A model generated the notes under the pieces. That model was not told the DNA's origin and did not search any database. It saw nothing but the letters and a program-made list of their open reading frames with translations. A DNA stretch of 44,452 bases from an uncultured Christensenellaceae bacterium (GTDB lineage: Bacteria; Bacillota; Clostridia; Christensenellales; CAG-1252): the NCBI GenBank assembly GCA_964408255.1, contig CAYOYS010000002.1:7616-52067 (forward strand), given 5' to 3'. The position numbers and the translations under genes are program-made. Positions 14,743 through 44,168 of this stretch are shown here, in pieces. The stretch's first letter is position 1. Each line of letters begins with the position of its first letter.

Positions 14743-14917
14743 GTTGTTACGATACGATTTCGAACGGTGTCACAGTAGTTGTCACGGCACGATTTCGAAC
14801 GGTATCGCAGTAGTTGTCACGGCACGATTTCGAACGGTGTCACAGTAGTTGTCACGGCACGATTTCGAACGGTATCGCAGTAGTTGTTACGGTACGATTT
14901 CGAACGGTATCGCAGTA
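14743..14917. repeat. Tandem direct repeat, 5 x 35 bp, overlapping the last 10 codons and stop codon of gene 1
   Basis: u1 14743-14777 gttgttacgatacgatttcgaacggtgtcacagta; u2 14778-14812 gttgtcacggcacgatttcgaacggtatcgcagta; u3 14813-14847 gttgtcacggcacgatttcgaacggtgtcacagta; u4 14848-14882 identical to u2; u5 14883-14917 gttgttacggtacgatttcgaacggtatcgcagta. On the minus strand each unit reads T[AV][IT]PFEIV[PS] followed by TGA or TAA. Only u5 is in the CDS frame (ITAIPFEIVP-TAA, stop at 14889-14887). Every unit has a TTCGAA palindromic core. Confidence 0.95.
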
Positions 14918-17900
14918 ATTGAGCCTGAGAAGAACTCGCCCGAATATTCGATAGTAACCGAGTACATTCCCGCTACGGACGGAAGGTCTTCCGATGTCTC
15001 GGCGACACCGTCTTTGTACTCGACTTGTGCAATGAGCGTAGTTCCCAAGTAATATTTGATTTTGACATTGGTGAACAAGCTTGCGTCAAAGTCGAGCTTA
15101 ACATAGCTGACGTTGCCTTCGACAGAATTGAACTCGGTATTAGACTCGTCAACGCTTTCCTTATACGCAATCAACAGCCCCGCTTTAAGGACAAGCGTGT
15201 AAGCGCCGTCCGTATATTCGCACATACCGAGCTTTATCGGTTTGGATAAAATCAAAGGATAATCCGTGCCGTCCTTGGTGTAGTACCAACGCAGTGCAAA
15301 GTAGTCGTTAGGGCATACGGAGCTTCCTCCCGGTAAGTCGTACGCTTTCAAGTACATTCCGTCATAAATCACAACATCGGGTTCTCCCGCGACCTTGATA
15401 ACAATAGGTGCGATAATCCTGAATGGGACGCTGCGTGTACCCTTGTAATTGGCGGAATTGACCGTTACAACGGCGGTGTATAGCCCTACCGCTGACGGCG
15501 GTGTCGCCAACAGGGTCTCACCGTCATAGTATTCTACCGAAACTGTCGCGAGTCCGCCTTGCACATTCGCAAGTATCATCTTTTCGACGGGCACACCCGA
15601 CGCGTTCTCCTCGTATGCCTGCGTAGTGTCGGCAACGACAATCATATCTCCGATGTCGAGCTTCTCTATAATGTAGCCGAACTCTATCGTATGTTCTAAC
15701 ACCTTATCGCCAAGGATATTGAAGCCTTCGACATACACTCGCACTTGATAATCACCTGCGTTAAGCAAGCCGATACCGACTCCCGTCTCGTTTGCGATAC
15801 TTCCGTCCGCGTTGTATTCGACAAGCTTCACAGACTCATATACCGCAACGCCCTCAACGAGAGTAATACGGAAATATTCTATAGCGGTTACCGCAACGCC
15901 CTCGTCGCAAGCGAAGCCGACGTGCTTGCTCTTGCCGTACGCGTAAATAAATTCTGTGGCTTGTTCGCCGAACATGTCACGGAAGAAATGTACCTTTGCC
16001 TCTATTTCGGCAACGTTGCCGCTAATCGTGACGGTATAGATTAAGGTCGTACCGTCCGCTAATTTTGCAATATTGCCGTTGCGGTCGTATATTCTTGGTT
16101 CAAACACGTATTTTGCGCCAATCATCGCGGTGTCCGCCGCGCCAAAATCGTTCTCGCTAAGTCCCGCATAAGGCGTGGTCACACCGTTGTAAATACGGCT
16201 TACCAACACCCAATTGGCTCTTACTGTCTTTGACACGGTGGTCTTGCCTTTCGCTACATTGACGGCAATTGTCGGGAACATAGACGCGGTAAGCTCTCCG
16301 CCTACCGGCAGCTCGACATCCGCGCTAACGCTTTCGATATGGTTGATATAGCTGCTATAGACTTGTACTTCGACATCGCGTACCCAAGTCATGCTGCCGC
16401 AATTAATCGTGCCCTTCATCAAATAAGTATCCTCAATGGCAAGATAGGGTCTATCAGACCACACGACGTCAAAATACGGAGTGTCGTCCAAGACAAAGGA
16501 CGCGCCGTCCTTTTTCACTACAATCTGCTTAATCGAATCAGGATACTCTATTGTCGAGCCTCTCTTGACCGAATAGAAGTCTTGCAAGTTGTCGCCTAGC
16601 ACAAGTCTGTCCGCAGTCACGATAACGGTAACCGCTATCTTTTGACCGAATACGACTGTCGAAACCTCGTAGTTACCATATCTGTAATTGCCCAAGCCGT
16701 CGTGGGCTATGTTGTCAAAGTTCCATTCGACCATAACGTCGATAGCCGTACCGTCGCTGTATAACAACCACAAGTAATTCGGCAAGTTGAAGTATTCGCC
16801 CAAGCCGATTTCCAAACGGTCGCTTAAGTCGTCAACGATAATCTTTTGAGCGGTCTTGCTAACGACATACTGCATATTTGCCGTATTCACCGTCTTCTTC
16901 CGCACCTTTACGGGTACTTGAACGGTCTGCGTACCCCCGATTGAGTTGCCAAGCGTAAGCTTTGCATTGTACAAGCCGCCCTTTAAGTCAAGTGATACCT
17001 CGCTGAAATCCCACGCGCCGACTTTCGCATTGGCAAAGCTAAAGCCTACGACGCCATCGGCGGCATAGCGAATCTTAGCAGTATCTACCTCGAATACGCG
17101 CTGTGTCCCGTCCTCGAATGTGACAGTGAAGCTGCCTGACGGCAGATTGAGTTCTTTCAAGAATTGGTCAATCTGCAACAACTCGATATTATTGAGTGTG
17201 CTGATAATCTTTTGCGACACATTGAGCTTGTAGCTGAATTTTTGTATGCCGCCAAGCGCAGTTCCAATCCTTGCCTCGAGGTTGAACGAACCGCCGGTGT
17301 AGTTGACCATATCATCGGTAAAGCGTGTGTCGGTACCCGCATAGTAGAACTCGACCGGCAAAGCCTCTGTTCCGCCCGTCTTGTATGTTACTAAGAGCGT
17401 CTCGGGTAGGACATAAACATACGGGTCCACCCATTTGTTGTCGAATGCAACGGTATCTATCTCTTTTTTGGCGAGCGTACAATCATAATAGATATATTTA
17501 TAACCCGCCTTAGCGTTGCCGACTTCTACCCTTACTCTGATTTGACCTCCAATATAGCCTAACACGTTAATCACGTTATTATCGGTGTCGGTATACACCA
17601 CGCTCTTTATCTCGATGCCGTATCCTGTATTAAGTACAGCGCCGCCCTCAAGCTCTACCGAAATATAGCCTAGCGCGAACGCGGGCGGAGCGTACGGATG
17701 AATGGGGCTTTCCAAGCCATAGTGCGTTGCGAACTCTTGCGCTCCCACATATAGCTTGACTATGGATTCGGAAACGACATTGATATTAACAGTTATCGGA
17801 GTAGGCTCACCTTCGACTAAGAACGTGCTTTGATACCCGCCTACGGAATTGCCGATTTCCACGTTGACCTTAAAGTTTTTCGCGTCAAATATGCCGTCAT

Positions 17901-20900
17901 AATCACACGCGTAAACAAAAGCTTCCTTGAGCCTGACGTTGAACATCAAGGACTTGGAGCCGTCACCGTAATATGCGCGAATCTGTAACGGTGTGCCGTT
18001 GGCATTGAGGATTGTAAGGTCGGACGCGACGTTCAAGCCTGCGCTATAAGGATTGACGGTCAAATATGTCGGGTCATAGGACACGACTGTCATATCCGTA
18101 ACATTAAGCGGTACGTTGTTAATCCATTGGTAACCGCTACGCTCGTTGCCGACTCTAATCTTTGCGATTACGGTGTCGGAATTATATTTTATTGATGACC
18201 TATCTACTATACATTCCAAAACCTCCATGCGCGCAGTGACGCCGCCGTCGTTGAAGTAGACGCCGACATGGCTCGGCAGTGGGCAGTTCGCATCGTAAGG
18301 ATTGTAATAATAGGTGTTGCCGTTGGCATCATAGGCATCTGCTCTTGTTGCGACCATTCTATGAATTACGATGTTAACTTCGACTTTCTGATAGCCGCCC
18401 TGCGCGTTGCCTATAAGTACGAACGCTTTGCTTGAGCCGCCCTTGTAATGGTAGTTGATGTTAGCATAGCTCCACAGTACACTCAAAGTGCCTCTTATGT
18501 AGCTGCCGCTAGCGTCCTTGTCAAAGAACTCAACGTCGATTACATTGGAGGGAAGAGTGGTTGCGCCGTTTGTGCCGCCATAAGGTGTGATTTTCTGTTC
18601 GAATTCACCCTTGTCATTGAGAAGTCTACTTGAGGTAACGCCTCTTATCGTGCGGTTGGCGACCTTCAACAGCAATCGGACATTTTGATACCCGCCCCGT
18701 CTTGTGCCGACGCTTGCATTGAGAATATAGTAGCCTCCTTGATAGAAGAACTCGTTGTTGTTGACAGGTATGCCGTAGAATGCCGCTTCTGCCTCGGTAA
18801 CTTTCGTCGCGTTCATAAGGTTGGCTTGCAGCTCCAAATAGCCTGACATTCCGTTCTCGTAAAGAACGCTGATTTCTGAAGGCAACGCGGCATAATCATA
18901 CGGGTCTACTTCGAATTCGTCCTTTTCTACCGCGATAACGATGCGCTCCATTATGACGACCTTGACTTCTACCGCTTTGATGCCGGTGTTGTCGTCGCCT
19001 ACATATACATTAACAGTCTGCTCTATCCCGCTCACGGTATAATGATAATTGATATCCGCCTTGGACCAATCCGCCTTAAGCATCAAATCTTTACCTGCGC
19101 AGTCGGGATATTCCTCGGGTGTGACAACTCTATACGAATCCACCTCCCAAACCTTTGCCGCGCCTATCTTAACGGTGAGTGAATCGGGCAGCGACACATT
19201 ATAAGGGTCTATCGCAATTAGCGTCTCCGAATCTATCGTGACATCCCGCTCCACTTTCATAACGCTATAATTAAAGGTTTGATAATCATATTTTGAATTA
19301 CCGAGCGTAATGCTCGCGCTATCGCCGCGCTTGACCCAACTGACTATTTTTGCAATTCCGTCCGAAACGCCGCCCTCGGTTACGACAAACTCGAACCAAA
19401 GTTGATTGGGATAAGAGCTTGTGTTGTACGCGTCGTCTACGATATTGGTAAGCAGTCTTGGATTGACGGGATTGCCCGTCTCGTCAAGGGCATCAAAGGT
19501 ATAAATCAAAGGATTATTGTCTAAAGAACGAACTTTCCTCGATATTACTCTAACTTTGAATTCGAGCTCAAAATATCCGACCGTGCTGTTGCCTAAGGTC
19601 AGTATCGCGCCCTTGGTGTTGTTGTTCAGTCCGCTATAGAACTCTTTGCCCTCATAGTTGCAGCCCTCGATATAGCTGTAATCCCAAATCGCTTTGAGGT
19701 TGCGCTGTGTGCCGTCTTGTAGGAAAGAGGTATTGAAGCGCGAAGGCATGTCGTTGTACGAAATGTATGTCTCGGCATCCAACCCTTCGCCGATAACGGT
19801 GGCATACACTAACTTTGTCGTGTCTTCCCACGGGTCTATCTCGATATAGACGCTACGGGTATACTTGATTCCGTCTACATAATAGACAAAAGTGTCCGTT
19901 GTTAGCGCTTCATTCTCGCCTGTACCCACTCTTAGCGATACTATCTCGTTGCCGTTGGTAAGAGAGGTAACTGTCTTTTTGATTACGCTTATCGGAATCA
20001 CCTTGGTCTGATAGCCGCCGATGTAGTCGCCGATTCTCGCGTTGACCGTGCCCGACACATACTCGCCCTCGCTTGAGGCATTGAGTACCTTCAAGTCGTA
20101 ATTCTTGCCTATCCATTCCACAGGCATTGACCTTGTCGAGCCGTCCTTGAACTGAACGGTAACGACCGTAGGCAGACTATCGCTGCTGAACGGGTCAATA
20201 GTAATCTCGACAGGGATTATTGACTCAATCTCGCGATTAAGCACTCTTACTGTAATCTCCTTGGTCTGGTAGCCCACAGAGCTGTTGCCCACGTTGCCGA
20301 AGATTATGAATTCTTGGAATAAGCTATCTCCCGCCTTGCTCTTATAGCCCTTGTAGCCGTTAATAACGTTGTTGATATCCCAAATAATGTTGACTTCGCC
20401 CTTGTTGCCGTTCTTGAACACTACGTCGACAAGCTCGGGATACGCGGCATTAAGTCTTGGGTCGATACCCGCGTAAGGGTCGAATATAATAGTGTTGAGT
20501 TCGTTGAGCTCGTAGTCCGTAATCTCCTTATTCTCTACGGTAACCTTGATTTGCACATTCTGATAGCCGCCGTAGTCGTTGCCGATTTTTGCCGTGATAA
20601 AGGTTTCGCCGCCCACACAGTTCCAAATCGCATAAAGCGAGGTAAGGTCCCAACGTATGCCGGAGAAAGTATAATTGGAATCGTCGGTAAATCGTACCAT
20701 TGCGGTCTTCGGATACGGCGATTGTTTTACCACATTACCCGCTCCGTCGTACTCTGTATCTTTCAAGAACGGAGTATGCTCGGTATTGTAAGGGTCGAAT
20801 ACGAACGCCTCTAGCTGCACCGATTTTATGATTTTGGGCTGAATGACGACCTCATGTCGGATATTCTGATAACCCGCGTCCTTGCTACCAACTTGCGCAA

Positions 20901-38900: not shown

Positions 38901-41900
38901 CGAAGCCGCCCAACCCTAATCCGAGCTCAAAAGCCTCGTTGAGGTCGCCGTCAAAGACGCTGAGTCCGATTCCAATACCGATATCCTTAAGGTTCAAATC
39001 AAGAGTAGCAATAATATCGGGAAGCTGTAAGCCCGACAAGTCAATCGCCAAAAGTGAAAGCGCCGCCGTCAGGAAGTTGCCCTTGGTCGCTATGCCGATT
39101 ATGCCGCTTTCGCCGTCAATGGTAACGGAGCCGAGAATAGCGTTGATAAGCGCCATGATATCAATATCAAGCGAGCTTTCTTCGACTTCGCCGCTCTCAG
39201 GCTCTACGGGCGTAGAAGTCGGTTCTTCGACTTCGCCGCCGATTAACGAGTCGATAAGATTTTTGACCGTATCGAGAACGCCCGTTCCTTCAATTTTGAA
39301 TTTCTTGGCGCCGATGCTCGTTAAGTCTATATAGAGCGCATCGTCTACACTGTCATAATATATACCAATTATCGTCCCCTCTATATTCGATATCTCTATC
39401 GCAAGGCGGCAATAATCAAAGTTCGCTATATCAAGATAGACTTTGAAACCTACGGTTACGGGCAAGTTGAGCAGTTCGCCAATGTCGCCTGTACTGCCAA
39501 TATAAATGGATAGTTGATTGAGAATCGAGACAATCGTGTCGCCGAGTCCTACCGCGCCTGCTATATGCGCAAGTGTCTCGGAAAGCGAAACATTGGGATT
39601 GCCCTCACTATCCACGCCAAAGACTCCGGTACGCAAATCGAGCGCAACAGTCGCCGCAAGATAAATTCCTTCTATCGCAAGCTTGCCCGTCTCATCGCTT
39701 ATCGGAATATATTCCAACTCCTCATGCGCGTTGGCGAACGCATACTGCGCGATATTTGAGCTGCCGAGCGAAAGCATTATGCCGTTGAGCCGCAAGGTAA
39801 GATTTACGCCCGCCGCGCCCAAGCCAACCGATACCGCGTAATCGGTGGTAAGTCCGACGCTTATCGAGTCCAAAAACTCGCCAAAATCCAAGCCGCCGAT
39901 GTCTATGCCAAGCTGTGCCAAAACATCAGCTATAAGCACACCCGAAATGATTACAGAGATGCTGTTTTGGTTAAGTTTGAGCGCGACAAGCTTTTCTCCG
40001 AGAGAGAGGGGCTCGCTCGCTCCCGCCGATTCCTCACTGTTGTTCAGCAAGCTTGAAAGCAGCGAGGATACATCAAGACCGTTGTAGCGCACCGCGCCCA
40101 CTCCGAATAAGGGCGCTTTTGCATAAACAGACTGCGATGACGCGTTGTAGTAGAGAAGCAACGCAAGACTCGTGCGGTTATGCGCGGCGTCCGTAACGTA
40201 CACCCTCAGCAATAGTTCGAGTTCGTCAAGAATGTTCAAAACGGTAGCACTATTGCTGAAATCTACCGCTTCGAGATTGATATTCGCCATAAGGTCGAAT
40301 GACAATCCAAGGTGTGCGGCTTGGGTAACCGATATGCCTATATCCGAGCCGGCAAGCAATGCTTTCACCAAGTTTTCGAGCGTTGCTCCTTGGTCGCCCG
40401 AATTGAACGCATCGAGATGCAAATCAATCTCGCCGGTAAGCGCAAGTCCCACCTCGTTAAGCGCCGCAAAATCAAGCTCGGGATAGTCCGCGACTGCGTC
40501 CAAGCCAAGATTTTGCTTTTCAAAGCTCGCGCTTATCTTATCAATACCAAAAGATATGTAGTTATTATCATCTTTTGAAAGCTTAATCCCCACGCCTACA
40601 CCGTCAATAAAATTGACATAGCCTTCGGGAGTCAGCTTGTCAAATATGTCGCCAACATCGTAGCCAAGTATTGCAATTAAGGTCGAAAGCGCGGTGTTGG
40701 AAAGCGCAACGCCCACTCCTCGCGCGTTGATGTTGATTGCGCTCAATATGCCGATATTGGACAAAAGTGTATCCATTATTCCGTCAAGCGCTCCGTCCTC
40801 CGCCGCCGCCTGCTCATCGAACAAGCCCGAGAGAAGGTCTCCCACATAGAATTTCATATGCGGAAGGTTGAAGCCCTTGACGCCGTTTGCGGTAATTGCA
40901 CCAAAAGAAGCGTTGATATATACATATGCTCCGTCAAAATACAATGTAAGTATGCTGTCTCCGTTCATAAGTATTTCGGCTTTGAGCTCCATTCTGCCCA
41001 ATATATCGTTCAAATCGATATTTGCGCTGATTTTGAGTCTGAATTCTCCGGAAATATCGCCTTCCACAAGAATATCAAAAATCAATCCGTCGAGAAGCTC
41101 CGCAATACTGTCGGGCAACACGCTTTCCGCAATGCCCAAAAGCGCGGCAAAAGAGGGTCTATCAGCTTGCCGATTGTCTTCCCACGCATATTCCAATAAA
41201 AGCTCGGTCGAAACATAAATCTCTTGAATTGCAGTGACATCGACATAATCGTCTTGCCAAGCCACCGATGCCGGCAGAATCTGCCGTTTTTCAAGCGCAA
41301 GCACAAAGTTGTGGATGCGCACAGAAAGATAGGGATTGACATAATCGGGTGTGCCGTCAGAGGTGTCGAGAGCAACAATCAGACCCAGCTCAAGCCCCTC
41401 CGAGGTCTTTATGTAGACCTTGCTACTTTCGTCAAGGCTAATAATCCCGTCCGCCTCAGTACCTAAAAGCAACTCAAAAACGGTAGCAATAAGTCTTTCG
41501 CCGATATATACTGCCGCCTCGTTCTGGTCAAGCGAAATGCCGCCCAAAACTCCGCCCAAAATTTTGATAAGAAGCTCGGGGGTCATTTCGCCGTCCTCTG
41601 CGCCGGATAGCGTGGAGGGAATAGCGCTAGCTAAAGCCTCATCGTCAAGCAGCCCTCTCAGCATGTCTTCAAGGTTGATTTTGTACATAAATTTGGGCAA
41701 TCCGACGCTGCCGTCAATAGAAATGCCCGACGCATCCACGAATATCGCACTTTCGTTGGGAGCGTATTCGCCATAATAAATCGCAAGTATCTGATGTGTG
41801 CGGTCACGGAATCCTCTATCGTATACTCTTACTGCAATCTCGATTTTGCCCAGGTCGATATTGAGTCCGGCTCCCGCAATAATGTCGGATAGCTTGAAGC

Positions 41901-44097
41901 CGTCAAAGCCGACGTTGACATCAAAAACAATGTCAAAACCGCCGTCAAACGGGTTCTTTACATTCAAAACGCAAGCAAGCTCGGCAATAATACCGCCGAG
42001 CGCGTCGTATAGGTCAAGCGAAGTAAGGCTACCTGAGTTCATGTCCACCGAAAGTTCGGCAGAAAGACTTACCGCGGATAAAGAATCCAAGTCGAGATAG
42101 GAATTCTTATTGAGGGTATCTACATTGATTGCGAACTCGGGTCTTAAGCCCAATGTCGCTTTGGGCATCTCAAGCTTGAGCGAAAGATTGTCATTGAGCT
42201 TGAGTCCGACGTCCAAATAAACGCCGAACTCACCCTCAAGCAGTCCGATTTCAAGACGAATCTCTCTCAATATGATATCTTCATCAGAATAGGTTGTGAC
42301 TAGACCGCCAAGGATTGCGTCAAAAATAGACATCGTTGTTTCTGCAGAGGCAATTGCCGCGTCCAATTCCGCAATTTCGCCCGCTGTCATTCCCGTCCTT
42401 TCCGTCGCGTTAAGTTTGTCAAGGTTCTGCTTTTGCGTATAGCCGATACCGTTAATCAGCGTCTTAAGCGTGGCTCTGTCAAGGGTAACCGCAAGCGCCG
42501 TTCTGCCGTTCGGACCCTTTTCAAGTGTGCCGAGAATCGCTACTATGAGTTTCATAGTATCAAGTTGGACATAAGTAACGTTGCTCGCCGCGGAAACCTC
42601 GAAAGTAGCGGTTCTTGCATAATTCGCAATAGCCTCGTCGAGATTTGAGCCGCCGTAAGCTGCTATCATACCCGCTTCCGCCGCCTCGCCCGCCTCGCCG
42701 GTCAAAAGTCCGCCGAGCAATCCGCCCAACAGATTGTTGAGAATACCCGAAAGGTTGATACCGCCGTATTTTAGCTTGGGCAACCCAATAGGAGACAAGT
42801 CGACGAGTATCATCTCGTCCCTGCCTCTATACGCGATATTTGCGACTGCCCCGCCCGAAAAATCGGACAGAGTAAGCAAGATAACGTTCGAAGAATTATT
42901 CGCAAAGTCAAGCGCGACTTGAAGTCGTCCGCTAAGTCCCATGGAGGATTCTCCGAGACTTATCGTCTTGCGCCCGAGGTCACCGAGGTCGTCAACGCCG
43001 AACAATAGCGCAAGAATTCCGCCGATAGTGTCGCCGACTGTAACCGTCTGCGCCACTTTATTCTCGTACATTAAGTTAAACTCTATATCAAGATTAAGCA
43101 CACTGAAAGTCTCGTAATCGGCAAAGCTCGGGAATGCGATATCGGGCATCGCATACCTATCCGTGCCGTAGTATTCTGCACCCGCTTTGACTCCCAATCC
43201 AAAAATGCCCTTGCCGTAGCTCGCGTCAAGGCTCATATCGGAAAATACACCATTCTCGGTTCGGATACTGAAATCAAGCGCGATTTTATCCAAAGGATAA
43301 CTAGTAATATTCGCAAGTCTTAGTCCGAAAACGGGATACAGGATATCGTCGAGATTTATTCCCAAAAATGTAGGGATTATCGGAGCGACTGTCTTAAGTA
43401 TATTGAACATTCCGGATATAAAAGTGGAAATGTCAGTCTCAACATAAAGCTCCTCTGTTGTGCCGGTGGTGGTCAGCGTCGCAGTCTTAATAAGACCGCT
43501 CAAAACGCCCGAAAGCATTGAGCCGAGATTTATCCCGGCGACATCAAGCGTCTCTATCTTCTCGACAACTCCGCCGAGCATGCCCGTTGCCGAAGAGGCG
43601 AGTTGTACGATTTGCTGAAGGTTGACTTCTTTGATTAAAAGGTTGGGGCCGTTTTCACCCGCGATATCGAGATAGAATTTACCCGCATCATAGTAAAGTC
43701 CAAGCACGGTATCGTTATTGACGCTTTCTTTCAATTCGAACAAAATATCAGATTTTGTGTCGTCAATACGGTTATATTTCGCTTTGAAATTTATGTAATA
43801 CTCTCTTGTCTCGTCGTCGATTGTCAACGACAGCCGTTCGGATTGAAAGCTGAACACAAGATACTCTTCATTCTCGTCAGATGAGAGCGAGTCGGATGCA
43901 AATGCTATCACATATTGCAAAAATTCGAAAAAATCGCTTGTGTCGAGCGTCTCTACAACCGATGTCGTCCCATTATGGTTGGTGTCCGCGCCCGGTTTGA
44001 TTATTATCGGGTCGATGTTTTTACAAGCGACAAGCCCGAATGTTGCCAAACATATAATTGTAATCAAAATTGTCAGAAAAACGATGCGTTTATTCAT
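14887..44097 (-). CDS. Giant (9,736-aa) predicted surface lipoprotein: ~21 novel ~270-aa modules + ~20 Ig-like (Big_4-like) repeats + MBG-like C-terminal domains
   Basis: The ORF track gives one open frame of 29,211 nt. The ATG at 44097-44095 is preceded by GGAGGT (44107-44102). I re-derived the C-terminal codons ...ITAIPFEIVP and the TAA stop at 14889-14887 from the DNA. In-frame spot translations at 42.72, 41.64, 40.83, 39.24, 38.40, 36.48, 35.94, 30.42, 22.86 and 16.02 kb match the supplied protein. Confidence 0.97.
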   Translation of the reverse strand: MNKRIVFLTILITIICLATFGLVACKNIDPIIIKPGADTNHNGTTSVVETLDTSDFFEFLQYVIAFASDSLSSDENEEYLVFSFQSERLSLTIDDETREYYINFKAKYNRIDDTKSDILFELKESVNNDTVLGLYYDAGKFYLDIAGENGPNLLIKEVNLQQIVQLASSATGMLGGVVEKIETLDVAGINLGSMLSGVLSGLIKTATLTTTGTTEELYVETDISTFISGMFNILKTVAPIIPTFLGINLDDILYPVFGLRLANITSYPLDKIALDFSIRTENGVFSDMSLDASYGKGIFGLGVKAGAEYYGTDRYAMPDIAFPSFADYETFSVLNLDIEFNLMYENKVAQTVTVGDTIGGILALLFGVDDLGDLGRKTISLGESSMGLSGRLQVALDFANNSSNVILLTLSDFSGGAVANIAYRGRDEMILVDLSPIGLPKLKYGGINLSGILNNLLGGLLGGLLTGEAGEAAEAGMIAAYGGSNLDEAIANYARTATFEVSAASNVTYVQLDTMKLIVAILGTLEKGPNGRTALAVTLDRATLKTLINGIGYTQKQNLDKLNATERTGMTAGEIAELDAAIASAETTMSIFDAILGGLVTTYSDEDIILREIRLEIGLLEGEFGVYLDVGLKLNDNLSLKLEMPKATLGLRPEFAINVDTLNKNSYLDLDSLSAVSLSAELSVDMNSGSLTSLDLYDALGGIIAELACVLNVKNPFDGGFDIVFDVNVGFDGFKLSDIIAGAGLNIDLGKIEIAVRVYDRGFRDRTHQILAIYYGEYAPNESAIFVDASGISIDGSVGLPKFMYKINLEDMLRGLLDDEALASAIPSTLSGAEDGEMTPELLIKILGGVLGGISLDQNEAAVYIGERLIATVFELLLGTEADGIISLDESSKVYIKTSEGLELGLIVALDTSDGTPDYVNPYLSVRIHNFVLALEKRQILPASVAWQDDYVDVTAIQEIYVSTELLLEYAWEDNRQADRPSFAALLGIAESVLPDSIAELLDGLIFDILVEGDISGEFRLKISANIDLNDILGRMELKAEILMNGDSILTLYFDGAYVYINASFGAITANGVKGFNLPHMKFYVGDLLSGLFDEQAAAEDGALDGIMDTLLSNIGILSAININARGVGVALSNTALSTLIAILGYDVGDIFDKLTPEGYVNFIDGVGVGIKLSKDDNNYISFGIDKISASFEKQNLGLDAVADYPELDFAALNEVGLALTGEIDLHLDAFNSGDQGATLENLVKALLAGSDIGISVTQAAHLGLSFDLMANINLEAVDFSNSATVLNILDELELLLRVYVTDAAHNRTSLALLLYYNASSQSVYAKAPLFGVGAVRYNGLDVSSLLSSLLNNSEESAGASEPLSLGEKLVALKLNQNSISVIISGVLIADVLAQLGIDIGGLDFGEFLDSISVGLTTDYAVSVGLGAAGVNLTLRLNGIMLSLGSSNIAQYAFANAHEELEYIPISDETGKLAIEGIYLAATVALDLRTGVFGVDSEGNPNVSLSETLAHIAGAVGLGDTIVSILNQLSIYIGSTGDIGELLNLPVTVGFKVYLDIANFDYCRLAIEISNIEGTIIGIYYDSVDDALYIDLTSIGAKKFKIEGTGVLDTVKNLIDSLIGGEVEEPTSTPVEPESGEVEESSLDIDIMALINAILGSVTIDGESGIIGIATKGNFLTAALSLLAIDLSGLQLPDIIATLDLNLKDIGIGIGLSVFDGDLNEAFELGLGLGGFGIAFCEPQGILPSDTASYCDWTDLNFGFEARAQAEFAIDSAYAAAINQYIAEQVVGQSFELFVKDNASGDTLVARLGFDFAFNVHLESLIDTRIELFMSVYYMSAGGELFANDNRLITVYYNSHDKLDAATNSYVESLYFIYGNTDASEGKAVRIDNLGIIELVLNLLGSPASSAPAASSAPAAAAENESPLSPIISLLVSDGLVVGVNGGVISYLLEVLGLSVLLPPLEGVSVTVSADLMQLSLDFNENSHLALRLEDYALIFKDSLAELPRYGAPITSMRDTATGLQDLGQLYFSTSMSVKLGLAELDGTEELVRYANYQNVLQLLLTADSDREYYYGVDIELGISGLDLTNLSIDAYTGSNLADNIDSIIDKMRLELLVMIRDKNVTEETTDGITTEYPEGKPVIGIYYLSDVTDVIYIHVPALELKLAIRNALDLREILYNLLSSVNTAAASEPESADGFGVLQIIKFLERVRLTESAVTVELSSQILSRAILLAGIDLSLPEINTLIGLGTLGDIFSGGETYIQSGIGIHVNTLFNEGYAIDIAIGDFVLEFREDLLPVLIEIDANNPEAADEAGNFFGFLSEYVGLDSIQAYISLSVDLEFGIAANNNPNDTNALRFEKLLDEFLGASDFEINITDILSGCYRLTIEASFNFAEGANHLYGLSLYMSLYEVGEDASGETLEKIMSIYYSRGTLGINLEGLLGVEPFQLDLDLGELLGGLFASEASDIDYAEASGDIVGIDGGITGLLNSISGVCGIYIGDEDIALTISGEILGTVLVMLGYNDYLPSIAKGVTLKNSDEMNELSDGTYTAEITDTEGGAHSFAFTKSIIRNKYSLALGTANIIRITLSGNGIDTILNSESAWSKYFIINRADGTIEFANTAEFNALPLGGYTVSVQLDNGTEPSVFSMDKSIKIYTYDSIDLTTFEIESITIKQGANIVATLASGAEWGKYFAINPTGGEFRVALGSSTGMYFALKEDTYFKVTLKELVFKGKYQEIEKRESYISNIEYLSVSTALEVDIHADAGINYAVNDMLGSVLSSLMDGALAELKIELDINEIIGMNYLVMLQANIRVDQYAEIPVDLGGSEFAIQVYEVDSTGATKVLGNLKFAFYYVGTEADGVIYVNIPYFDLMLKIDEIAFSSLIDNLLKSLLNLGGDEIAGAGEANALDMGGILGLFTGLTLNNSGAQIGFAGDMFNAALSLAGMNDLNMPAVKADTSKLSVYLDGAPTVTIDKGGKLLEYTKFIDLLIDFDVPPSGVDVFSAYINFVLYNTEIGFNRAISYDVPLGYYQSLTEAKALFFKLSGTVELDTPIDNSINLQGLGELFGIESELALNIAASYQRLDFNLEMNIGLGGDNIAELGKSGGLSLDELLINLVQDLYLYFDIVRTVQAGDYHEQNTLLELYYYNNYIYADLSALGLPKLAIEISLSDLLKILFGSTTGGETAGAADDALNIAFNPEGLCVGASVNFIDYALGLLGVNLDAMFTLNALVSLNPVNEGDPIIRLDFGAVGGNVPNGEGGYSDVTTLSMSINKPVLSLGGHITKTVDDAADYAFVNSLEFIHLSADATIEIAIDAVDENNAYYLTDLLQSLFVNEEDRIPVILTGNVRKTLGISFAVNISLVDISMSELYISVCEIVKTGSLTNREEMITLFYDGNGYLYISAPILEDNLNIRIEFDIASLLSGTGLQEMLDNLNIADMIYSLIYGENYAAETSDVSPAENDNNNIFELVTAIVSSLNLTDSGEFVIKFTTTIFHEISERFLGGIGLDMPSLKALDVRFDFFNTNFGIDMVWNKKPGTENDPRFKLDISNYSFRGTKQEIAFDGNRYNTTDDFKHLSIKASGRLDYDFADGLYSIGGLFETLIPGLNIPVTMQGIDGFFEVILEAKIGIVNIMDSEVNLSIYYPSNDPDNPNLLLSVYFDIYRGEIYIDIPWFDVPKILIAGIDLSSLLKDALAETEESGAADLGDAGNYLLLVGRVINKIIISDGSDNYAEGLHIVYNNDMLELILGELLSEIQLVLPVQITDMATIFSISDQYISFNAEFVNNNELPDGGQNPETAGYVSFLGELNTIEFNDTSIRPERTQDVTEYKSIYDFNMPTGDNLMLENIYFESKFYLDAEMKEQSLDLQALLMYILSEDFTLDITDYIDLRFEVELKANLNLKNIGRSELMLKIILIEYPDTVNEKKALFVRAYYVGLDNALYLDAPMIGLYNIKVALNLGELLSGITDTATAMDMTPEEENIWRAELISGMFDNILITKNGITITSSYSFLANVFEIMMKEVLPFEDTPFTRLKLVINLLERDPVTNAILPFFHNSETGESNFNAKLMLEVYDRSMIYEDGVLKDPLPEEAKSVIEMGMGDMMFVAGKQHIDFFEIDTASGNEKDTGAEKMDYQLFSEMSKLTFNLRIQFEESPGSVDYFADIGKVLNALFPGLEAMATFTTKTFETNMVFTLNVSASIDLNNLSDSEIFISLIEGGAINGTVERRMGTIYYNGPDNGTLYIDMPALNVNKIKYVGLDLAALLPANGLDSLFSGGSNTSSAEDGDNDEGVFLEDFNATFKTIFKNISRITVSQSAGVQISIKTALISIFAQALGYNVDVDALDEIGELKVGLRLSVEDGLGINLQASLDAVDGTQPPFFRISIDGIGLKLSKDTLTIPADIASQLANYSELTLDSKIALSISGQFDGRSEAGIYSLTNVISSLLEENIDFALGFEDSSISLQFNLLLNVDLGTIFNSFGGLNSLDINTLLLNNEILLEIIDVTDPMIPSLLLSVYVTDGIAYVNIGILKSAPPIKLDLISLIGMGREITDEETPGQSHAESAQYNSEMHVDYASTTPQLISATRIYHYLEGESYYLVDLSNTSIDTIRLVNEDETVTLTSEEWNEYFNIVEKNGLTYFYFTEFARTQSGDNKLTPVNGILFYDLELLSFITRTQSTDDTLTLNLVEREIISVTLRTSPEADGVTLTSPEEWNQFISMQGVAASTTISLNSTAIGLGYTHLTVVTSNIIPSIIRSTNQYKMALKGATIQKVEFYKSSVFPIPDEAFATANGATEIAKYFTMATRGNVTYIAFNNTDEVRALNENGKYFEIRIYTSQGVLYMDSTISKKFVLDKNDSDGILYLILSLFGGIMATQDVSTLMLNNNTLMIIEEFFGIPLKGTSADEGYISVRLQNTLTKGGNFALSNVTSDITYEVEGLSAATVAKAVISNAVYDAELEFTGGDIADYFIIADNFVTVRNSDKVKKLNSGTWSFALYDASETMLYQNTFNKSVQAIGVIGVKYEELTFTIGLNNYSAKVGAENLLDYTSPVNNIVTKKVDGVTVIDDGEYSDIINDLNEVYVSTIIDFAIDIPANNISSLDDMFNPGGSLYNVGDNIASYIGNVLLALGFNREMLTGDYRLHLRVYLGSLDFANLALSDIKIYIKLEKRCYNIMLDGILYDDAFVDILTIYYDGANIFLNPNLETFRFLTAPPVYIAVQGSLEFWGITSEELAAASTPSRLVEDFAAAEDSFSIAGLINLLAGVTIGQGTVAMNLGKNFIGGLFAMIVPDMDEIEIEIDKFDLVVDVFNGAVTLDIAKYTKYNPSEAFLNTDGEPYEDYRTFILDDDVAKLFVTAQAMRNYPISDWTVTMYYEDGSTADFSLSFNGSGGSFSYGAKSGTFVASGNAPAELTGIYADFAAGKAISKIVMAVSQIDYLKAGAGTNPYFCFDIKEGELCLSDKINSMSTCGIFKLSLYNGANVLLGTLSLNRMSLVPTVTYDGVTTPIRYFDDCLCLDNYHLKANVTLSNIAKIRVEYDSDDMIYLSSFITDGDKLKIPKNLFDRFMDGEFKLALFGAGNVTLATIDLDFTGSTALASYGGETVSVYYYNGYAVIAIPSLAADIELSSVTRIGFAVADNILVRIALDNQGYNTQALIFRATIGEVELAFELPDRFKTQAQGGIAENGVYGSGGPYHANDEYKHYNVGIIASTRGLELSEFQRWNDLEFYIKTSIEFTYQLDTFDFDLFGANVTSGFGSLINTIAGSVVAFSGIDTTIRIDVEVKINADDPFLTEAIIKIHLLQYPGLPPIVIYYDGGGSSELSTLYIDLSSVGIDAFSIKLDLITEMRNWMNSFITAPEYVSPETESAPAEDARELDLTSMLPKLINSVGIGNNMLILLMNPDIINNLLAMFTIEAFFPQTEMYLQGKILRNFEDSFLKLSVFMPIEDKDHAVKAELIISDLKAVAYPARLNSDYLLSDAERLALYLDDLHMGQNNIFKGLTITDNGSDYTIGYDAATPISTLAKSSYFTADLRPNKDDAHKSWIDSKALQIKLSTTSYITLSGGTNASGENNGIDIDLTPTLASLLVLNPSMGDLIKLVIDNSTYNPATSSYVPTNMRLKIKIEAMLDLTEPRNTELLLEIIKEYEQGGTTKHYLLLGVYYVNATESLYLTLPIMDIDGLMITDIDLSGVLAGILGVNWASKAGAGETAGAGEDDSEWGLLSDLLGLDMEKIKNDYIGMINGVEGIDGAEFMLLVSQHRYGISLNFALVDMILNLAGVDNIILPKIITGDNTRESFDRVEVYFDSGDSDLQPGETVINQSSINVNLYIDKNGNESGLDTTNLDWVGLKIKLGGLNIALGESGGALELTKNNLSGIGGLDGTYLVFPHMSGTGASQYGGGTLVNRAIFANLGEYPNVLDINAFRLTLNGAITLETTADEGGKVNMLVDFLESTVADLLGVDKSAVVINRNCTDEWRYGIRIDAKIDFEHWENTQLLVEFGYRLTGESGINVLLIGLYYSAADNSVYADLSGMGLMKVKLMGLDIKAILKELAGLDLDGSLSIVSDLLESRLGVSNLGELIDKMLEEKEEKDLFGDIEDDDDSDPDPDPDPVIRGAVSAKMIINSYIKNNIQGTHVGIEFDTAMLQMLLGMLGLNFEVPEGVKLALDLSLCNGFDSLSVDVGAYDIIQSSGTVSMNNLNHVKLVFDEVKLGYGAGVTNILSGVNFGTYSGLNFGGLFGLPNNYSEPGISNILGSVIDALYPAGDGLKLTIMTNVAYVDKSGVSVVTGKGRSTDVLVTRIGSGDYVHGLKIDLGNTLLGGIVSGVSFFDNELYLDIDLGFIGQYSFAVAELDIRSLIKMSVNSDYDPIPPLVEEEEDGSGKITADDLAEGLKNPVLGITINLGSAGIGKSGEVDTNGSTPSISTIRLDLNPKLIGGVLAMLPPKIFSLLKYERDLPNNQQAYMMYRAILKKLIGDSGFLKWLVDGLVGNTVIDLLARLLPFPELTDQSVCFVVVELNDTQLANGDYGMFRKVYLRTYTETSNEYFDIKIENNGIKLAAVVNSSPVLGSGQNIDDRTIIDVFELDYNKNGIVDYMENLPDNAIVTRYLNGTVVAGSETETDNVSMSWADSMFLIDPTAGLSGPVPMVNEATEFQNYQIEGYVMNDVHKVNVKLPYSAARLVKTMTLPSGTGSVVVPLIAGAGLTLPMIVDANKVDELIANLPKIIYVTMTDGYGKNELIKTFDGTKGTGDSIVEWDTSQLKDSYSGGSFVLGLTFGDKKVKSYKVEIPITVRNLALNKVVFPSEDGTYENGASSLIFNPYDEIKLPKQVWATFGNTEPKLYNIKWSISESDIKPSYTGITYTVSAEIGNLEIGYYKFEGISIIIKPWMLVDYKLKNPQGQYYDLDLTFDPYSYVMIGKEALADSKNPNMYPSYLWLHYEGDDDASGNPNYILTPVQWNLRGVNNTYEGNTSSRATFRITGNTEEETARIENAGYQTLEVPVTIIDATFDSARLEMTDLASYIDPLYFIYTKKDNEGNIINYCKYVKGEAPRDMFGNEITSDVELAKYQSSLVVWDMINNKIANPLDAMSYPKTVTAMYKNGTQKTFEAELSSNGNTYLNTGGVIWATSGLKLNYMGGIYYAALTIGNAAGGYQTVNIPINIANRTISSINLKEVRASYVFDPYTENATDEIYYPENGGNLLYVTQTEDSVRSNVIFTSQSSDYYPIDWNLSGINQTYNGGTYYAVAQVGSKDAGYQNIRHEVVIQPKIIKSVQLEAFVFDPYNTEHTPFLKDTEYDGAGNVVKQSPYPKTAMVRFTDDSNYTFSGIRWDLTSLYAIWNCVGGETFITAKIGNDYGGYQNVQIKVTVENKEITDYELNELNTIIFDPYAGIDPRLNAAYPELVDVVFKNGNKGEVNIIWDINNVINGYKGYKSKAGDSLFQEFIIFGNVGNSSVGYQTKEITVRVLNREIESIIPVEITIDPFSSDSLPTVVTVQFKDGSTRSMPVEWIGKNYDLKVLNASSEGEYVSGTVNARIGDYIGGYQTKVIPISVIKKTVTSLTNGNEIVSLRVGTGENEALTTDTFVYYVDGIKYTRSVYIEIDPWEDTTKLVYATVIGEGLDAETYISYNDMPSRFNTSFLQDGTQRNLKAIWDYSYIEGCNYEGKEFYSGLNNNTKGAILTLGNSTVGYFELEFKVRVISRKVRSLDNNPLIYTFDALDETGNPVNPRLLTNIVDDAYNTSSYPNQLWFEFVVTEGGVSDGIAKIVSWVKRGDSASITLGNSKYDYQTFNYSVMKVERDVTIDSETLIAIDPYNVSLPDSLTVKIGAAKVWEVDSYRVVTPEEYPDCAGKDLMLKADWSKADINYHYTVSGIEQTVNVYVGDDNTGIKAVEVKVVIMERIVIAVEKDEFEVDPYDYAALPSEISVLYENGMSGYLELQANLMNATKVTEAEAAFYGIPVNNNEFFYQGGYYILNASVGTRRGGYQNVRLLLKVANRTIRGVTSSRLLNDKGEFEQKITPYGGTNGATTLPSNVIDVEFFDKDASGSYIRGTLSVLWSYANINYHYKGGSSKAFVLIGNAQGGYQKVEVNIVIHRMVATRADAYDANGNTYYYNPYDANCPLPSHVGVYFNDGGVTARMEVLECIVDRSSIKYNSDTVIAKIRVGNERSGYQWINNVPLNVTDMTVVSYDPTYLTVNPYSAGLNVASDLTILNANGTPLQIRAYYGDGSKSLMFNVRLKEAFVYACDYDGIFDAKNFKVNVEIGNSVGGYQSTFLVEGEPTPITVNINVVSESIVKLYVGAQEFATHYGLESPIHPYAPPAFALGYISVELEGGAVLNTGYGIEIKSVVYTDTDNNVINVLGYIGGQIRVRVEVGNAKAGYKYIYYDCTLAKKEIDTVAFDNKWVDPYVYVLPETLLVTYKTGGTEALPVEFYYAGTDTRFTDDMVNYTGGSFNLEARIGTALGGIQKFSYKLNVSQKIISTLNNIELLQIDQFLKELNLPSGSFTVTFEDGTQRVFEVDTAKIRYAADGVVGFSFANAKVGAWDFSEVSLDLKGGLYNAKLTLGNSIGGTQTVQVPVKVRKKTVNTANMQYVVSKTAQKIIVDDLSDRLEIGLGEYFNLPNYLWLLYSDGTAIDVMVEWNFDNIAHDGLGNYRYGNYEVSTVVFGQKIAVTVIVTADRLVLGDNLQDFYSVKRGSTIEYPDSIKQIVVKKDGASFVLDDTPYFDVVWSDRPYLAIEDTYLMKGTINCGSMTWVRDVEVQVYSSYINHIESVSADVELPVGGELTASMFPTIAVNVAKGKTTVSKTVRANWVLVSRIYNGVTTPYAGLSENDFGAADTAMIGAKYVFEPRIYDRNGNIAKLADGTTLIYTVTISGNVAEIEAKVHFFRDMFGEQATEFIYAYGKSKHVGFACDEGVAVTAIEYFRITLVEGVAVYESVKLVEYNADGSIANETGVGIGLLNAGDYQVRVYVEGFNILGDKVLEHTIEFGYIIEKLDIGDMIVVADTTQAYEENASGVPVEKMILANVQGGLATVSVEYYDGETLLATPPSAVGLYTAVVTVNSANYKGTRSVPFRIIAPIVIKVAGEPDVVIYDGMYLKAYDLPGGSSVCPNDYFALRWYYTKDGTDYPLILSKPIKLGMCEYTDGAYTLVLKAGLLIAYKESVDESNTEFNSVEGNVSYVKLDFDASLFTNVKIKYYLGTTLIAQVEYKDGVAETSEDLPSVAGMYSVTIEYSGEFFSGSITAIPFEIVP
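14890..15995 (-). other. C-terminal region with three MBG-like (Y-x-G ... AG-x-Y-x-V ... NY-x-G ... F-x-I) domains; no LPXTG, no terminal TM helix
   Basis: aa ~9,369-9,736. Motif strings: 'LNAGDYQVRVYVEGFNILGDKVLEHTIEFGYIIEK', 'VEYYDGETLLATPPSAVGLYTAVVTVNSANYKGTRSVPFRIIAP', 'VEYKDGVAETSEDLPSVAGMYSVTIEYSGEFFSGSITAIPFEIVP'. The call rests on motif-level resemblance to MBG (YGX-type) domains of large adhesins; no HMM was run. Confidence 0.45.
15996..22890 (-). repeat. Array of ~20 diverged ~95-130-aa Ig-like repeats (Big_4-like) with an [IV]-G-[ND]-x2-[GS]-G-Y-Q signature
   Basis: aa ~7,070-9,368. Each unit follows the pattern ...[IV]DP[YF]...LP..V.V.[FY].[DN]G.....V.W......Y.GG.Y.....[IV]GN..GGYQ..V.V.V..[RK]. 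Examples: 'IDPFSSDSLPTVVTVQFKDGSTRSMPVEW...ARIGDYIGGYQTKVIPISVIKK', 'LTIGNAAGGYQTVNIPINIANR', 'AKIGNDYGGYQNVQIKVTVENK', 'ASVGTRRGGYQNVRLLLKVANR', 'VLIGNAQGGYQKVEVNIVIHR', 'VEIGNSVGGYQSTF', 'LTLGNSIGGTQTVQVPVKVRKK'. The 'LP.TV.V.y.DGs...v.V.W' core is the hallmark of bacterial Ig-like group 4 domains. Confidence 0.6.
22846..22881 (-). other. Single EF-hand/dockerin-like Ca-binding-loop motif DYNKNGIVDYME at the junction of module array and Ig array
   Basis: aa 7,073-7,084, verified from the DNA (TTT GAG CTC GAC TAC AAC AAG AAC GGC ATA ...). It fits D-x-N-x-N-G-x-V-D-x-x-E but fails the last position of the PROSITE EF-hand pattern (N instead of a hydrophobic residue). Confidence 0.3.
24295..24342 (-). 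repeat. Hyper-acidic linker DIEDDDDSDPDPDPDP including an in-frame hexanucleotide (GACCCY)x4 repeat
   Basis: aa 6,586-6,601. Plus strand: agggtc ggggtc agggtc agggtc (24295-24318), then gga and atc x4. It is preceded by EEKEEK (24355-24375). Confidence 0.9.
27345..28090 (-). other. Insertion cluster 3: ~250 aa of small beta-sandwich-like domains interrupting one scaffold module
   Basis: aa ~5,337-5,585: 'NYPISDWTVTMYYEDGSTADFSLSF...TNPYFCFDIKEGELCLS...GIFKLSLYNGANVLLGTLSL...LSSFITDGDKLKIPKNLFDRFMDGEFKLALFGAGNVTLATIDLDF'. This module is ~0.6 kb longer than the 0.8-kb base period. Confidence 0.5.
29075..29350 (-). other. Insertion 2b: single ~90-aa beta-sandwich-like domain
   Basis: 'ALSNVTSDITYEVEGLSAATVAKAVISNAVYDAELEFTGGDIADYFIIADNFVTVRNSDKVKKLNSGTWSFALYDASETMLYQNTFNKSV'. 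It shares the [DE]-x-x-x-YF-x-I signature with the other insertions. Confidence 0.45.
29535..30405 (-). other. Insertion cluster 2: ~290 aa, about three ~95-aa beta-sandwich-like units with a W-x-[EQK]-[YF]-[FI] signature
   Basis: aa ~4,565-4,855: 'VTLTSEEWNEYFNIVEKNGLTYFYF', 'VTLTSPEEWNQFISMQGVAASTTISL', 'NGATEIAKYFTMATRGNVTYIAF ... GKYFEIRIYTSQGVLYMD'. It lies directly after the linker at ~30.45 kb and before a normal anchor A ('ILYLILSLFGGIMA...EEFFGIPL'). Confidence 0.5.
35900..36500 (-). other. Insertion cluster 1: ~200 aa, two ~95-aa beta-sandwich-like units with the same W-x-K-Y-F signature
   Basis: aa ~2,535-2,732: 'LSDGTYTAEITDTEGGAHSFAF...ITLSGNGIDTILNSESAWSKYFIINRADGTIEF...GGYTVSVQLDNG' and 'ITIKQGANIVATLASGAEWGKYFAINPTGGEFRV...TYFKVTLKELVF'. 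Both boundaries were verified by in-frame translation at 36480 and 35940. Confidence 0.5.
44023..44097 (-). other. Lipoprotein (SPase II) signal peptide with lipobox L-V-A-C; lipidated Cys25 predicted
   Basis: MNKR (basic), then IVFLTILITIICLATFG (hydrophobic), then LVAC|KNIDP. The Cys25 codon TGT at 44025-44023 was checked in the DNA. Confidence 0.8.
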
Positions 44098-44101
44098 AAA
44101 T

Positions 44102-44107
44102 ACCTCC
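44102..44107 (-). promoter_or_regulatory. Shine-Dalgarno site of gene 1 (GGAGGT; GGAGG is 5 nt from the ATG)
   Basis: Plus-strand acctcc at 44102-44107. The minus strand reads CTGGAGGTATTTATG. Confidence 0.9.
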
Positions 44108-44139: not shown

Positions 44140-44168
44140 ATTTTACTAAAGTAAATGATTAATGTCAA
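44140..44168 (-). promoter_or_regulatory. Near-consensus sigma-70/SigA promoter: -35 TTGACA (44168-44163), 17-nt spacer, -10 TAAAAT (44145-44140)
   Basis: The minus strand reads TTGACA-TTAATCATTTACTTTAG-TAAAAT-GGTAGTAG. The predicted TSS is ~44133, giving a ~35-40-nt leader to the ATG. The promoter lies in a visibly AT-rich 355-bp non-coding region. Confidence 0.65.

Follow-up and report, generated by a model that had tools for sequence, protein, structure and literature searches.

The Gram-positive fibrillar adhesins, of which Ebh/Embp, SasG/Aap and Cna are examples, and the large repetitive surface lipoproteins of the Mollicutes are among the described proteins closest to the one considered here. 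The Mollicutes proteins, such as Lmp1 of Mycoplasma hominis, are 1-2 thousand amino acids (kaa) long, acidic, and have an N-terminal lipobox. Big_4 and MBG are domain types typical of Firmicute surface proteins and adhesins. A fibrillar adhesin is defined by tandem stalk domains, an adhesive domain and an anchor (Monzon, Lafita & Bateman 2021, PMC8286594). In the survey that gives this definition, nearly half of the candidates have no known anchor and the word "lipoprotein" is absent from the text (PMC8286594). Predicted bacterial proteins of 10-85 kaa have also been reported, including proteins of 10-30 kaa in gut Clostridia (West-Roberts et al. 2023, bioRxiv 10.1101/2023.11.21.568195). Here we describe a stretch of 44,452 nucleotides (nt) from an uncultured Christensenellaceae bacterium (assembly GCA_964408255.1, contig CAYOYS010000002.1, positions 7,616 to 52,067; hereafter the window) that carries a single gene for a protein of 9,736 amino acids (aa). 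The best reading of this giant protein and its relatives is that of a new family: giant fibrillar surface proteins that are held by an N-terminal lipid anchor and whose stalk is made of a new module.

The features of the window are collected in Table 1. The initial annotation had described the giant gene as an uninterrupted frame preceded by a promoter and a GGAGG ribosome-binding site. Its coordinates are correct, and the frame, for which no strand had been given, lies on the minus strand. Translation and the listing of open reading frames (ORFs) give a single terminal stop codon, and the window contains no Ns; a stop-free run of 9,736 codons is not a product of chance. Both expression signals are present: the promoter-like site is ~43 nt 5' of the ATG (consensus match alone), and the window edge is 355 nt upstream of the gene.

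The closest orthologous contig, L001 (a 4.7-kb JGI metagenome contig; JGI 3300038675, Ga0416708_013463), matches the first 1,417 codons of the giant gene collinearly, with 74% nt and about 75-81% aa identity. Over these codons the ratio of nonsynonymous to synonymous substitution rates (dN/dS) comes to 0.08, and synonymous sites are nearly saturated. The longest DNA repeat within the gene is 41 nt (≤80% identity), and GC content stays within 0.45-0.49 along the window, where GC skew is uniform as well. Independent homologue fragments are collinear with the giant protein at 30-35% identity over aa 54-3184 (P0002), 2082-3960 (P0003), 5893-9635 (P0027) and 6148-9296 (P0049); P0027 runs collinearly from the module array into the immunoglobulin (Ig)-like region described below. 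Judged from these comparisons, the 29-kb gene is real and intact, and it evolves under purifying selection. Compared with the intact ORF of the window, L001 carries two frameshifts (1551-1564 and ~3251), which are either sequencing errors in the L001 assembly or the mark of a decaying copy. The whole protein is strongly acidic (D+E 13.5% versus K+R 6.4%), an excess that would fit an extracellular protein.

Table 1. Features of the giant gene and its surroundings (window positions; aa numbers refer to the giant protein)
Feature	Position	Strand	Remarks
Giant gene	14887..44097	minus	9,736 codons, ATG start, stop codon 14887-14889
Sigma-70-type promoter-like site	44140..44168	minus	TTGACA-17 nt-TAAAAT, 11/12 consensus matches
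Ribosome-binding site GGAGG	44103..44107	minus	5 nt ahead of ATG at 44097, read from sequence
Lipoprotein signal peptide (predicted), aa 1-25	44023..44097	minus	Lipobox L-V-A-C, Cys25
Array of unnamed ~270-aa modules, aa 65-6587	24334..43905	minus	Internal hidden Markov models, self-comparison
Insertion between modules, about aa 2551-2723	35929..36447	minus	Small unnamed beta domain of ~85-90 aa, in two copies
Long array interruption, aa 4615-5563	27409..30255	minus	Small-beta-domain copies (aa ~4586-4831) and divergent/split modules
Junction, aa 6589-7195	22513..24333	minus	Weak module remnants only, no recognised domain
19 tandem Big_4-like Ig-type domains, aa 7196-9158	16624..22512	minus	Pfam Big_4 and internal hidden Markov model
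C-terminal 578 aa, aa 9159-9736	14890..16623	minus	Three MBG-like units
Five tandem copies of a 35-nt unit	14743..14921		Occupy most of the 241 nt that separate the giant gene from gene 2
Gene 2, second giant gene	3..14645	minus	>4,881 aa stop-free, runs off the window edge

The N-terminus of the giant protein, MNKRIVFLTILITIICLATFGLVAC followed by KN, has the organization of a lipoprotein signal peptide, with K3 and R4 in the n-region, an uncharged h-region and the sequence L-V-A-C ending at Cys25. It conforms to a PROSITE PS51257-type rule for bacterial lipoproteins (positive n-region, uncharged h-region, lipobox [LVI][ASTVI][GAS]C and Cys at about position 15-35). The same rule holds for every one of the 27 family representatives that are longer than 1 kaa and have an intact N-terminus. 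When 12 N-termini are aligned, invariance is confined to M1, the lipobox Cys, and a G and a Y of the first YY motif. The lipobox proposed in the initial annotation fits the signal peptidase II type and is conserved in all 27 of these representatives, and the mature protein is predicted to begin with Cys25, in lipidated form. The signal peptide is the sole transmembrane-like segment. At the other end, the C-terminus is free, with neither an LPXTG motif nor a transmembrane helix, and ten ~974-aa tiles covering the protein contain no Pfam anchor domain.

Most of the protein consists of an unnamed ~270-aa module. Internal hidden Markov models (HMMs) recognize 20 significant copies, or 22 if divergent and split ones are counted: 16 significant copies lie within aa 65-4613 and three within aa 5564-6587, divergent or split copies are found around aa 4970-5430, and weak remnants extend as far as ~aa 6900. 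Together the modules make up 67-71% of the protein length, close to the ~72% first estimated. The copies are 15-23% identical to each other. Each has about ten long amphipathic beta-strands and two to three short helices and ends in the signature hhhYYxxxxxhYhDhxxhGhPKhKhxxhDLxxLL, which is followed by an Ala-rich, often acidic linker (median ~18 aa, Ala enriched 1.5-fold). The family consensus alternates Leu/Ile with Asp/Glu/Lys (e.g. ..LSLELELDLDL.., ..LTLDLKANLDL.. and ..LLLGVYYKDGTLYVDLSGLGLPKIKIEGLDLASLL..), a pattern that indicates long amphipathic beta-strands. The array is broken at aa 2493-2656 and aa 4614-5563. In these interruptions there are at least five copies of a second, smaller beta domain of ~85-90 aa, including those at aa 2550-2640 and 2641-2724 (jackhmmer self-search). 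A ..YF.I....G...F.. motif recurs in this domain, which can also be seen in P0002 and P0003 and has no Pfam match.

The initial annotation could not name the main module and recognized no catalytic domain, and wider searches give the same outcome. When the ten tiles were scanned against Pfam and NCBIfam, aa 1-6800 had no match and no catalytic domain was found in the protein. Neither library has a recurrent match among 25 two-unit segments drawn from the whole family; a hit to the NCBIfam P110/LppT N-terminal domain in one of the 25 (E-value: 0.08) is at chance level. Two module profiles (A1 and A4) have zero matches to Protein Data Bank (PDB) sequences at E≤10. Structural models were also compared with known structures using Foldseek. 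An AlphaFold 2 model of a single unit (15 paralogous rows) has a predicted local distance difference test score (pLDDT) of 59, too poor for fold assignment. A model of two units (25 rows, including homologues) has a mean pLDDT of 67 and a predicted template modelling score (pTM) of 0.47; its second unit reaches 65-90, and the inter-unit linkers are below 50 and predicted to be disordered. In this model, a unit would comprise a short beta-hairpin and a helix, about nine more strands (several of 12-14 residues) and C-terminal helices. Searches with both models against PDB, and against BFVD, returned nothing at E≤1e-3 and no template modelling (TM) score above 0.32. Tile scans and structural comparison alike leave the module without a known family or structure.

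The module defines a family that had no public model. When 1.84 billion representative proteins were searched exhaustively with a profile, 75 were retrieved at E≤1e-3, 49 of them at E≤1e-10; the 75 contain ~450 module copies. A word-index search with aa 853-1926 had found one fragment only, and one with a 32-row alignment none; the family emerged from the exhaustive profile search. Many representatives are 5.6-7.9 kaa long with 11-17 modules, and the architecture recurs: a lipobox, 9-17 modules running from aa ~30-100 to 3.2-5.8 kaa, then 1-3.5 kaa of other domains. No other member is as long as the window protein, the only complete one observed here, or contains as many modules. The proteins most closely related to it (P0001, P0002, P0003, P0027 and others) are fragments of assemblies. 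Of the clusters, one comprises 39 members of ~5,593 aa and another nine identical copies of 7,879 aa; a common homologue of ~5.6 kaa has the accession MDY5440424.1. All members named by source are from metagenome-assembled genomes (MAGs) of Clostridia, Clostridiales, Eubacteriales or Bacillota, and all are called "hypothetical protein" except one "carboxypeptidase-like regulatory domain-containing protein". A scan of public genome contigs with P0078 located one homologue locus in the human-gut MAG HGM11377. No relative of the first 850 aa of the window protein was found in public genome contigs, and public metagenome contigs gave nothing for aa 5500-9736; the source of the window is therefore apparently in neither collection. 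As far as source names show, the family is small, unnamed and confined to uncultivated Clostridia and Bacillota. The initial annotation could match the protein to no described family, but it is not an orphan.

Some homologues carry Cys-rich linker inserts with a repeated C-x-C-x-x-C motif (e.g. CGCTCADCLAAGYCGH). These are found in P0002 (aa ~1726-1830), in P0003 (aa ~1087-1150 and the C-terminal ~300 aa) and at the N-terminus of P0027; the window protein has none, and only 31 Cys in 9,736 aa.

Beyond the modules, the junction gives way to the 19 Big_4-like domains counted with an internal HMM. These are ~85-100 aa each and share a G-x-x-x-GGYQ motif. Pfam Big_4 (PF07532) exceeds its gathering threshold of 22.1 in the last three tiles, with 57.6, 29.8 and 22.8 bits. 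Near the C-terminus, MBG_3 (PF18887) stays below its threshold (20.1 versus 25 bits; E-value: 6.8e-4), and the MBG-like resemblance of the three units there is one of motifs (YDG..AG.Y.V..NY) read from the sequence. The initial description of the remainder as Ig-like and MBG-like agrees with these assignments. Compared with PDB sequences, the junction and C-terminal regions have chance-level matches only, and a word-index protein search found no homologue of the C-terminal 579 aa.

The gene product is probably a very long, flexible cell-surface protein of a Gram-positive-type clostridial bacterium, most likely a tether or adhesin, a reading in which we have moderate confidence. It would function as follows. 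The protein would be exported by the Sec pathway and cut by signal peptidase II between the A and C of LVAC. Cys25 would then be modified with diacylglycerol, holding the N-terminus in the outer leaflet of the cytoplasmic membrane. The ~20-22 globular, acidic, beta-rich modules on Ala-rich disordered linkers would form a stalk resembling beads on a string, as suggested by the sequence and the medium-confidence model. By rough arithmetic from domain sizes, this stalk could reach well over 100 nm, through and past the cell wall. At the distal C-terminus, the 19 Big_4 Ig-like domains and the MBG-like units would contact the target, which could be a host glycan or mucus, a particle or another cell. 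Finally, a second giant membrane protein of GLUG/MBG type, encoded downstream and probably co-expressed, might act alongside the lipoprotein or bind it; the pairing of the genes is an observation, and the interaction is speculative.

In several respects this protein resembles the fibrillar adhesins of Gram-positive bacteria: it is one giant chain from a Firmicute, with tandem diverged stalk domains, Ig-like domains, no enzymatic domain and a putative binding end distal to the anchor. The 20-22 large modules and 19 Big_4-like domains correspond to the stalk of the definition. The anchors used in that definition (LPXTG, SLH, LysM, choline-binding and others) are absent, and a lipobox is found instead. 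Unlike in fibrillar adhesins, the anchor is thus N-terminal and the C-terminus free, which reverses the polarity. The main repeat is also much larger than the usual stalk domains and belongs to no Pfam family, and no known adhesive domain reaches its threshold.

The giants of West-Roberts et al. 2023 are similarly very large, repetitive, predicted surface proteins of uncultivated Clostridia. Their gut habitat is of the same kind as that of one homologue, which traces to a human-gut MAG, and their proposed role is the binding of cells or glycoproteins. They differ in size (10-30 kaa or more), in having RCC1, Listeria-Bacteroides repeat, YG-repeat, dockerin and leucine-rich repeat (LRR) domains, none of which were found here, and in that no lipoprotein anchor is mentioned for them. 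Because giant repetitive proteins of gut Clostridia have already been reported, size alone is not exceptional. The claim that this is among the very largest bacterial proteins holds for its 9,736 aa in a relative sense, given the 10-85 kaa now on record (bioRxiv 10.1101/2023.11.21.568195). Lmp1 and similar Mollicutes proteins offer a parallel for the anchor, with an N-terminal lipobox on a large, internally repetitive, acidic surface protein from a wall-less or monoderm Bacillota lineage; the giant protein is far larger and no sequence relationship was detected, the one hint being the chance-level P110/LppT hit.

A previously unannotated family is defined here, with 75 representatives among 1.84 billion proteins and a main domain that is absent from Pfam and NCBIfam and unmatched in PDB. 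Its genes are among the largest on their contigs, and several hundred copies of the domain could be annotated at once with a Pfam-style model of the aligned modules. N-terminal lipid anchoring would appear to be usable for giant fibril-like surface proteins in Gram-positive-type bacteria, an anchor type left unconsidered in the fibrillar-adhesin survey. Should the protein function in adhesion, family members would be candidate determinants of gut attachment by such bacteria.

Gene 2, on the same strand, begins 241 nt downstream of the giant gene. It has a GAGGAG ribosome-binding site, and its N-terminus (MKRTTKQQSLIVWTAVLALFLIAAASFSIFIAAPVGA) is that of a signal or signal-anchor. A GLUG motif was the only Pfam match when five tiles were scanned. 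There is no terminator-like site between the two genes, which are probably co-transcribed. Four of the five homologue loci with downstream sequence (L002, L005, L006 and L007) also have a second large gene, 17-23 nt downstream. The proteins that these encode are 2.3-3.1 kaa long with an N-terminal signal (the L005 copy ends with its contig at 1,284 aa). MBG_2/MBG_3 matches were found in the three partners scored; none is on record for L006. The three complete partners have an N-terminal signal and a C-terminal transmembrane helix with a basic tail, and lack LPXTG. By BLAST, the partners at homologue loci form two homologous pairs.

Several of these results weigh against a tether or adhesin. 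No adhesive domain reaches a curated threshold, MBG_3 included. The fifth homologue locus, L004 (from a human-gut MAG), lacks a second giant gene, which shows that the pairing can be dispensed with, and gene 2 of the window has no BLAST similarity to the neighbours at homologue loci. Over aa 3960-5855 no independent homologue is collinear, and continuity there comes from this assembly alone. At the pLDDT and pTM of the best model, given above, the units may be arranged as flexible beads or as a continuous sheet, and the weak Foldseek matches point to lipid- or ligand-binding half-barrels rather than to known stalk domains.

The first alternative is an envelope spacer or scaffold, in which the lipoprotein would form a long acidic "brush" or coat, or would serve as a scaffold that anchors the co-encoded giant GLUG/MBG protein, and would set a surface distance or barrier while binding no external target itself. 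We regard this as possible but rather unlikely. The extreme acidity and flexible linkers would suit such a role, as would the lack of an adhesive domain at threshold and the conserved pairing with a second giant membrane-anchored protein. The pairing is missing in L004, however, and BLAST reveals no relationship between gene 2 of the window and the partners at other loci. Distal arrays of Ig-like and MBG domains are, moreover, typical of binding proteins.

In a second alternative, the modules are ligand- or lipid-binding half-barrels and the array, as a long chain or a conduit, captures hydrophobic molecules or passes them from the membrane to the outside or to another cell, or the reverse, as TULIP, LolA-like and bridge-like lipid-transfer proteins do. 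Like the bridge-like, AsmA/TamB-type and TULIP proteins, the giant protein would have long arrays of amphipathic antiparallel beta-strands with helices and loops and an N-terminal membrane tether. The sole structural leads are of this kind: the weak Foldseek top matches are SPLUNC1/BPIFA1 (E-value: 0.04, TM score 0.11), retinol-binding protein, VtrC, LmcA, DUF1329 and 4eg9 (probability 0.95, TM score 0.32), all of them curved-sheet ligand-binding folds. None is significant (best overall E-value: 0.007), and they provide a lead only. Entries for TamB, AsmA, VPS13 and ATG2 are absent among the best Foldseek matches. AsmA/TamB-like, RBG and TULIP families have no Pfam match in the ten tiles or 25 segments and no significant structural match with these models, whose medium to low confidence leaves room for a distant relationship in fold; nor does any other Pfam lipid-transfer family match. 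Unlike such proteins, the giant protein has a lipobox instead of a transmembrane helix and predicted disordered linkers between units, and its hosts are apparently monoderm, so that there would be no second membrane to bridge. We consider half-barrels improbable. Equally improbable in our view is the proposal that the module is a new fold for hydrophobic or other small ligands, and that the lipid-anchored array lets a monoderm gut bacterium capture or transfer such ligands over a long range or make a bridging contact with a host or partner cell. If it were correct, the array would be a new kind of extracellular molecular machine and not a passive stalk.

The linkers raise a third alternative, a polyprotein precursor that is cut at its Ala-rich linkers into ~20 subunits which build a surface layer or matrix. 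Such linkers recur throughout the array, and in many homologues (e.g. P0004, P0006 and P0019) they contain A-x-A-like strings of the form S/G-E/S-A-L/M-A/T-T/A-A-D/E (ALATAE, AMTAAD, ALSSAD), which could be a processing or modification site. The string is much weaker in the window protein, the giant protein contains no protease or processing domain, and module order is kept between distant homologues, which fits a single ordered chain. Cleavage into subunits is very improbable in our view, and a lipid-anchored tether or adhesin made of one chain remains the preferred reading. An artefact, whether a chimeric or mis-assembled contig or a pseudogene posing as one ORF, is the least credible explanation, since the metagenome-type sequence, the two frameshifts of L001 and the stretch at aa 3960-5855 that has this assembly as its single source are set against 9,736 sense codons with a dN/dS of 0.08, uniform composition free of long repeats, the same architecture at 5.6-7.9 kaa in many independent assemblies and the collinearity of P0027 across the module-Ig junction. 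A collapsed repeat in particular was rejected; repeat collapse is no issue because the module copies are only 15-23% identical and no DNA repeat in the gene exceeds 41 nt.

The surroundings of the homologues contain genes for SpoIIGA, SigI/RsgI and a two-component system, which fits sporulating monoderm Clostridia. A Gram-positive type of host is supported by the SpoIIGA and SigI/RsgI genes and by the source names of family members. A phage or viral origin was considered and rejected, as the neighbours at homologue loci are housekeeping and sporulation genes. Regulators are encoded directly upstream of two homologues, a SigI-type sigma factor with an RsgI-like anti-sigma factor at L007 (4814-7710) and a two-component system at L002 (2136-4169), which suggests that expression may be signal-dependent. 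In the window, plus-strand ORFs of 166-307 aa lie antisense to both giant genes (2454-4334, 12894-13664, 20854-25168 and 30721-31389); these are not genes but by-products of the long stop-free frames on the opposite strand.

For the 35-nt repeat region between the giant gene and gene 2, Rfam gives no match and RNA folding nothing unusual. Copy 1 is the end of the giant gene itself, comprising the last ten codons and the stop (..TAIPFEIVP*). The next four copies repeat those codons with the stop and, because 35 is not a multiple of 3, the frame shifts with each copy.

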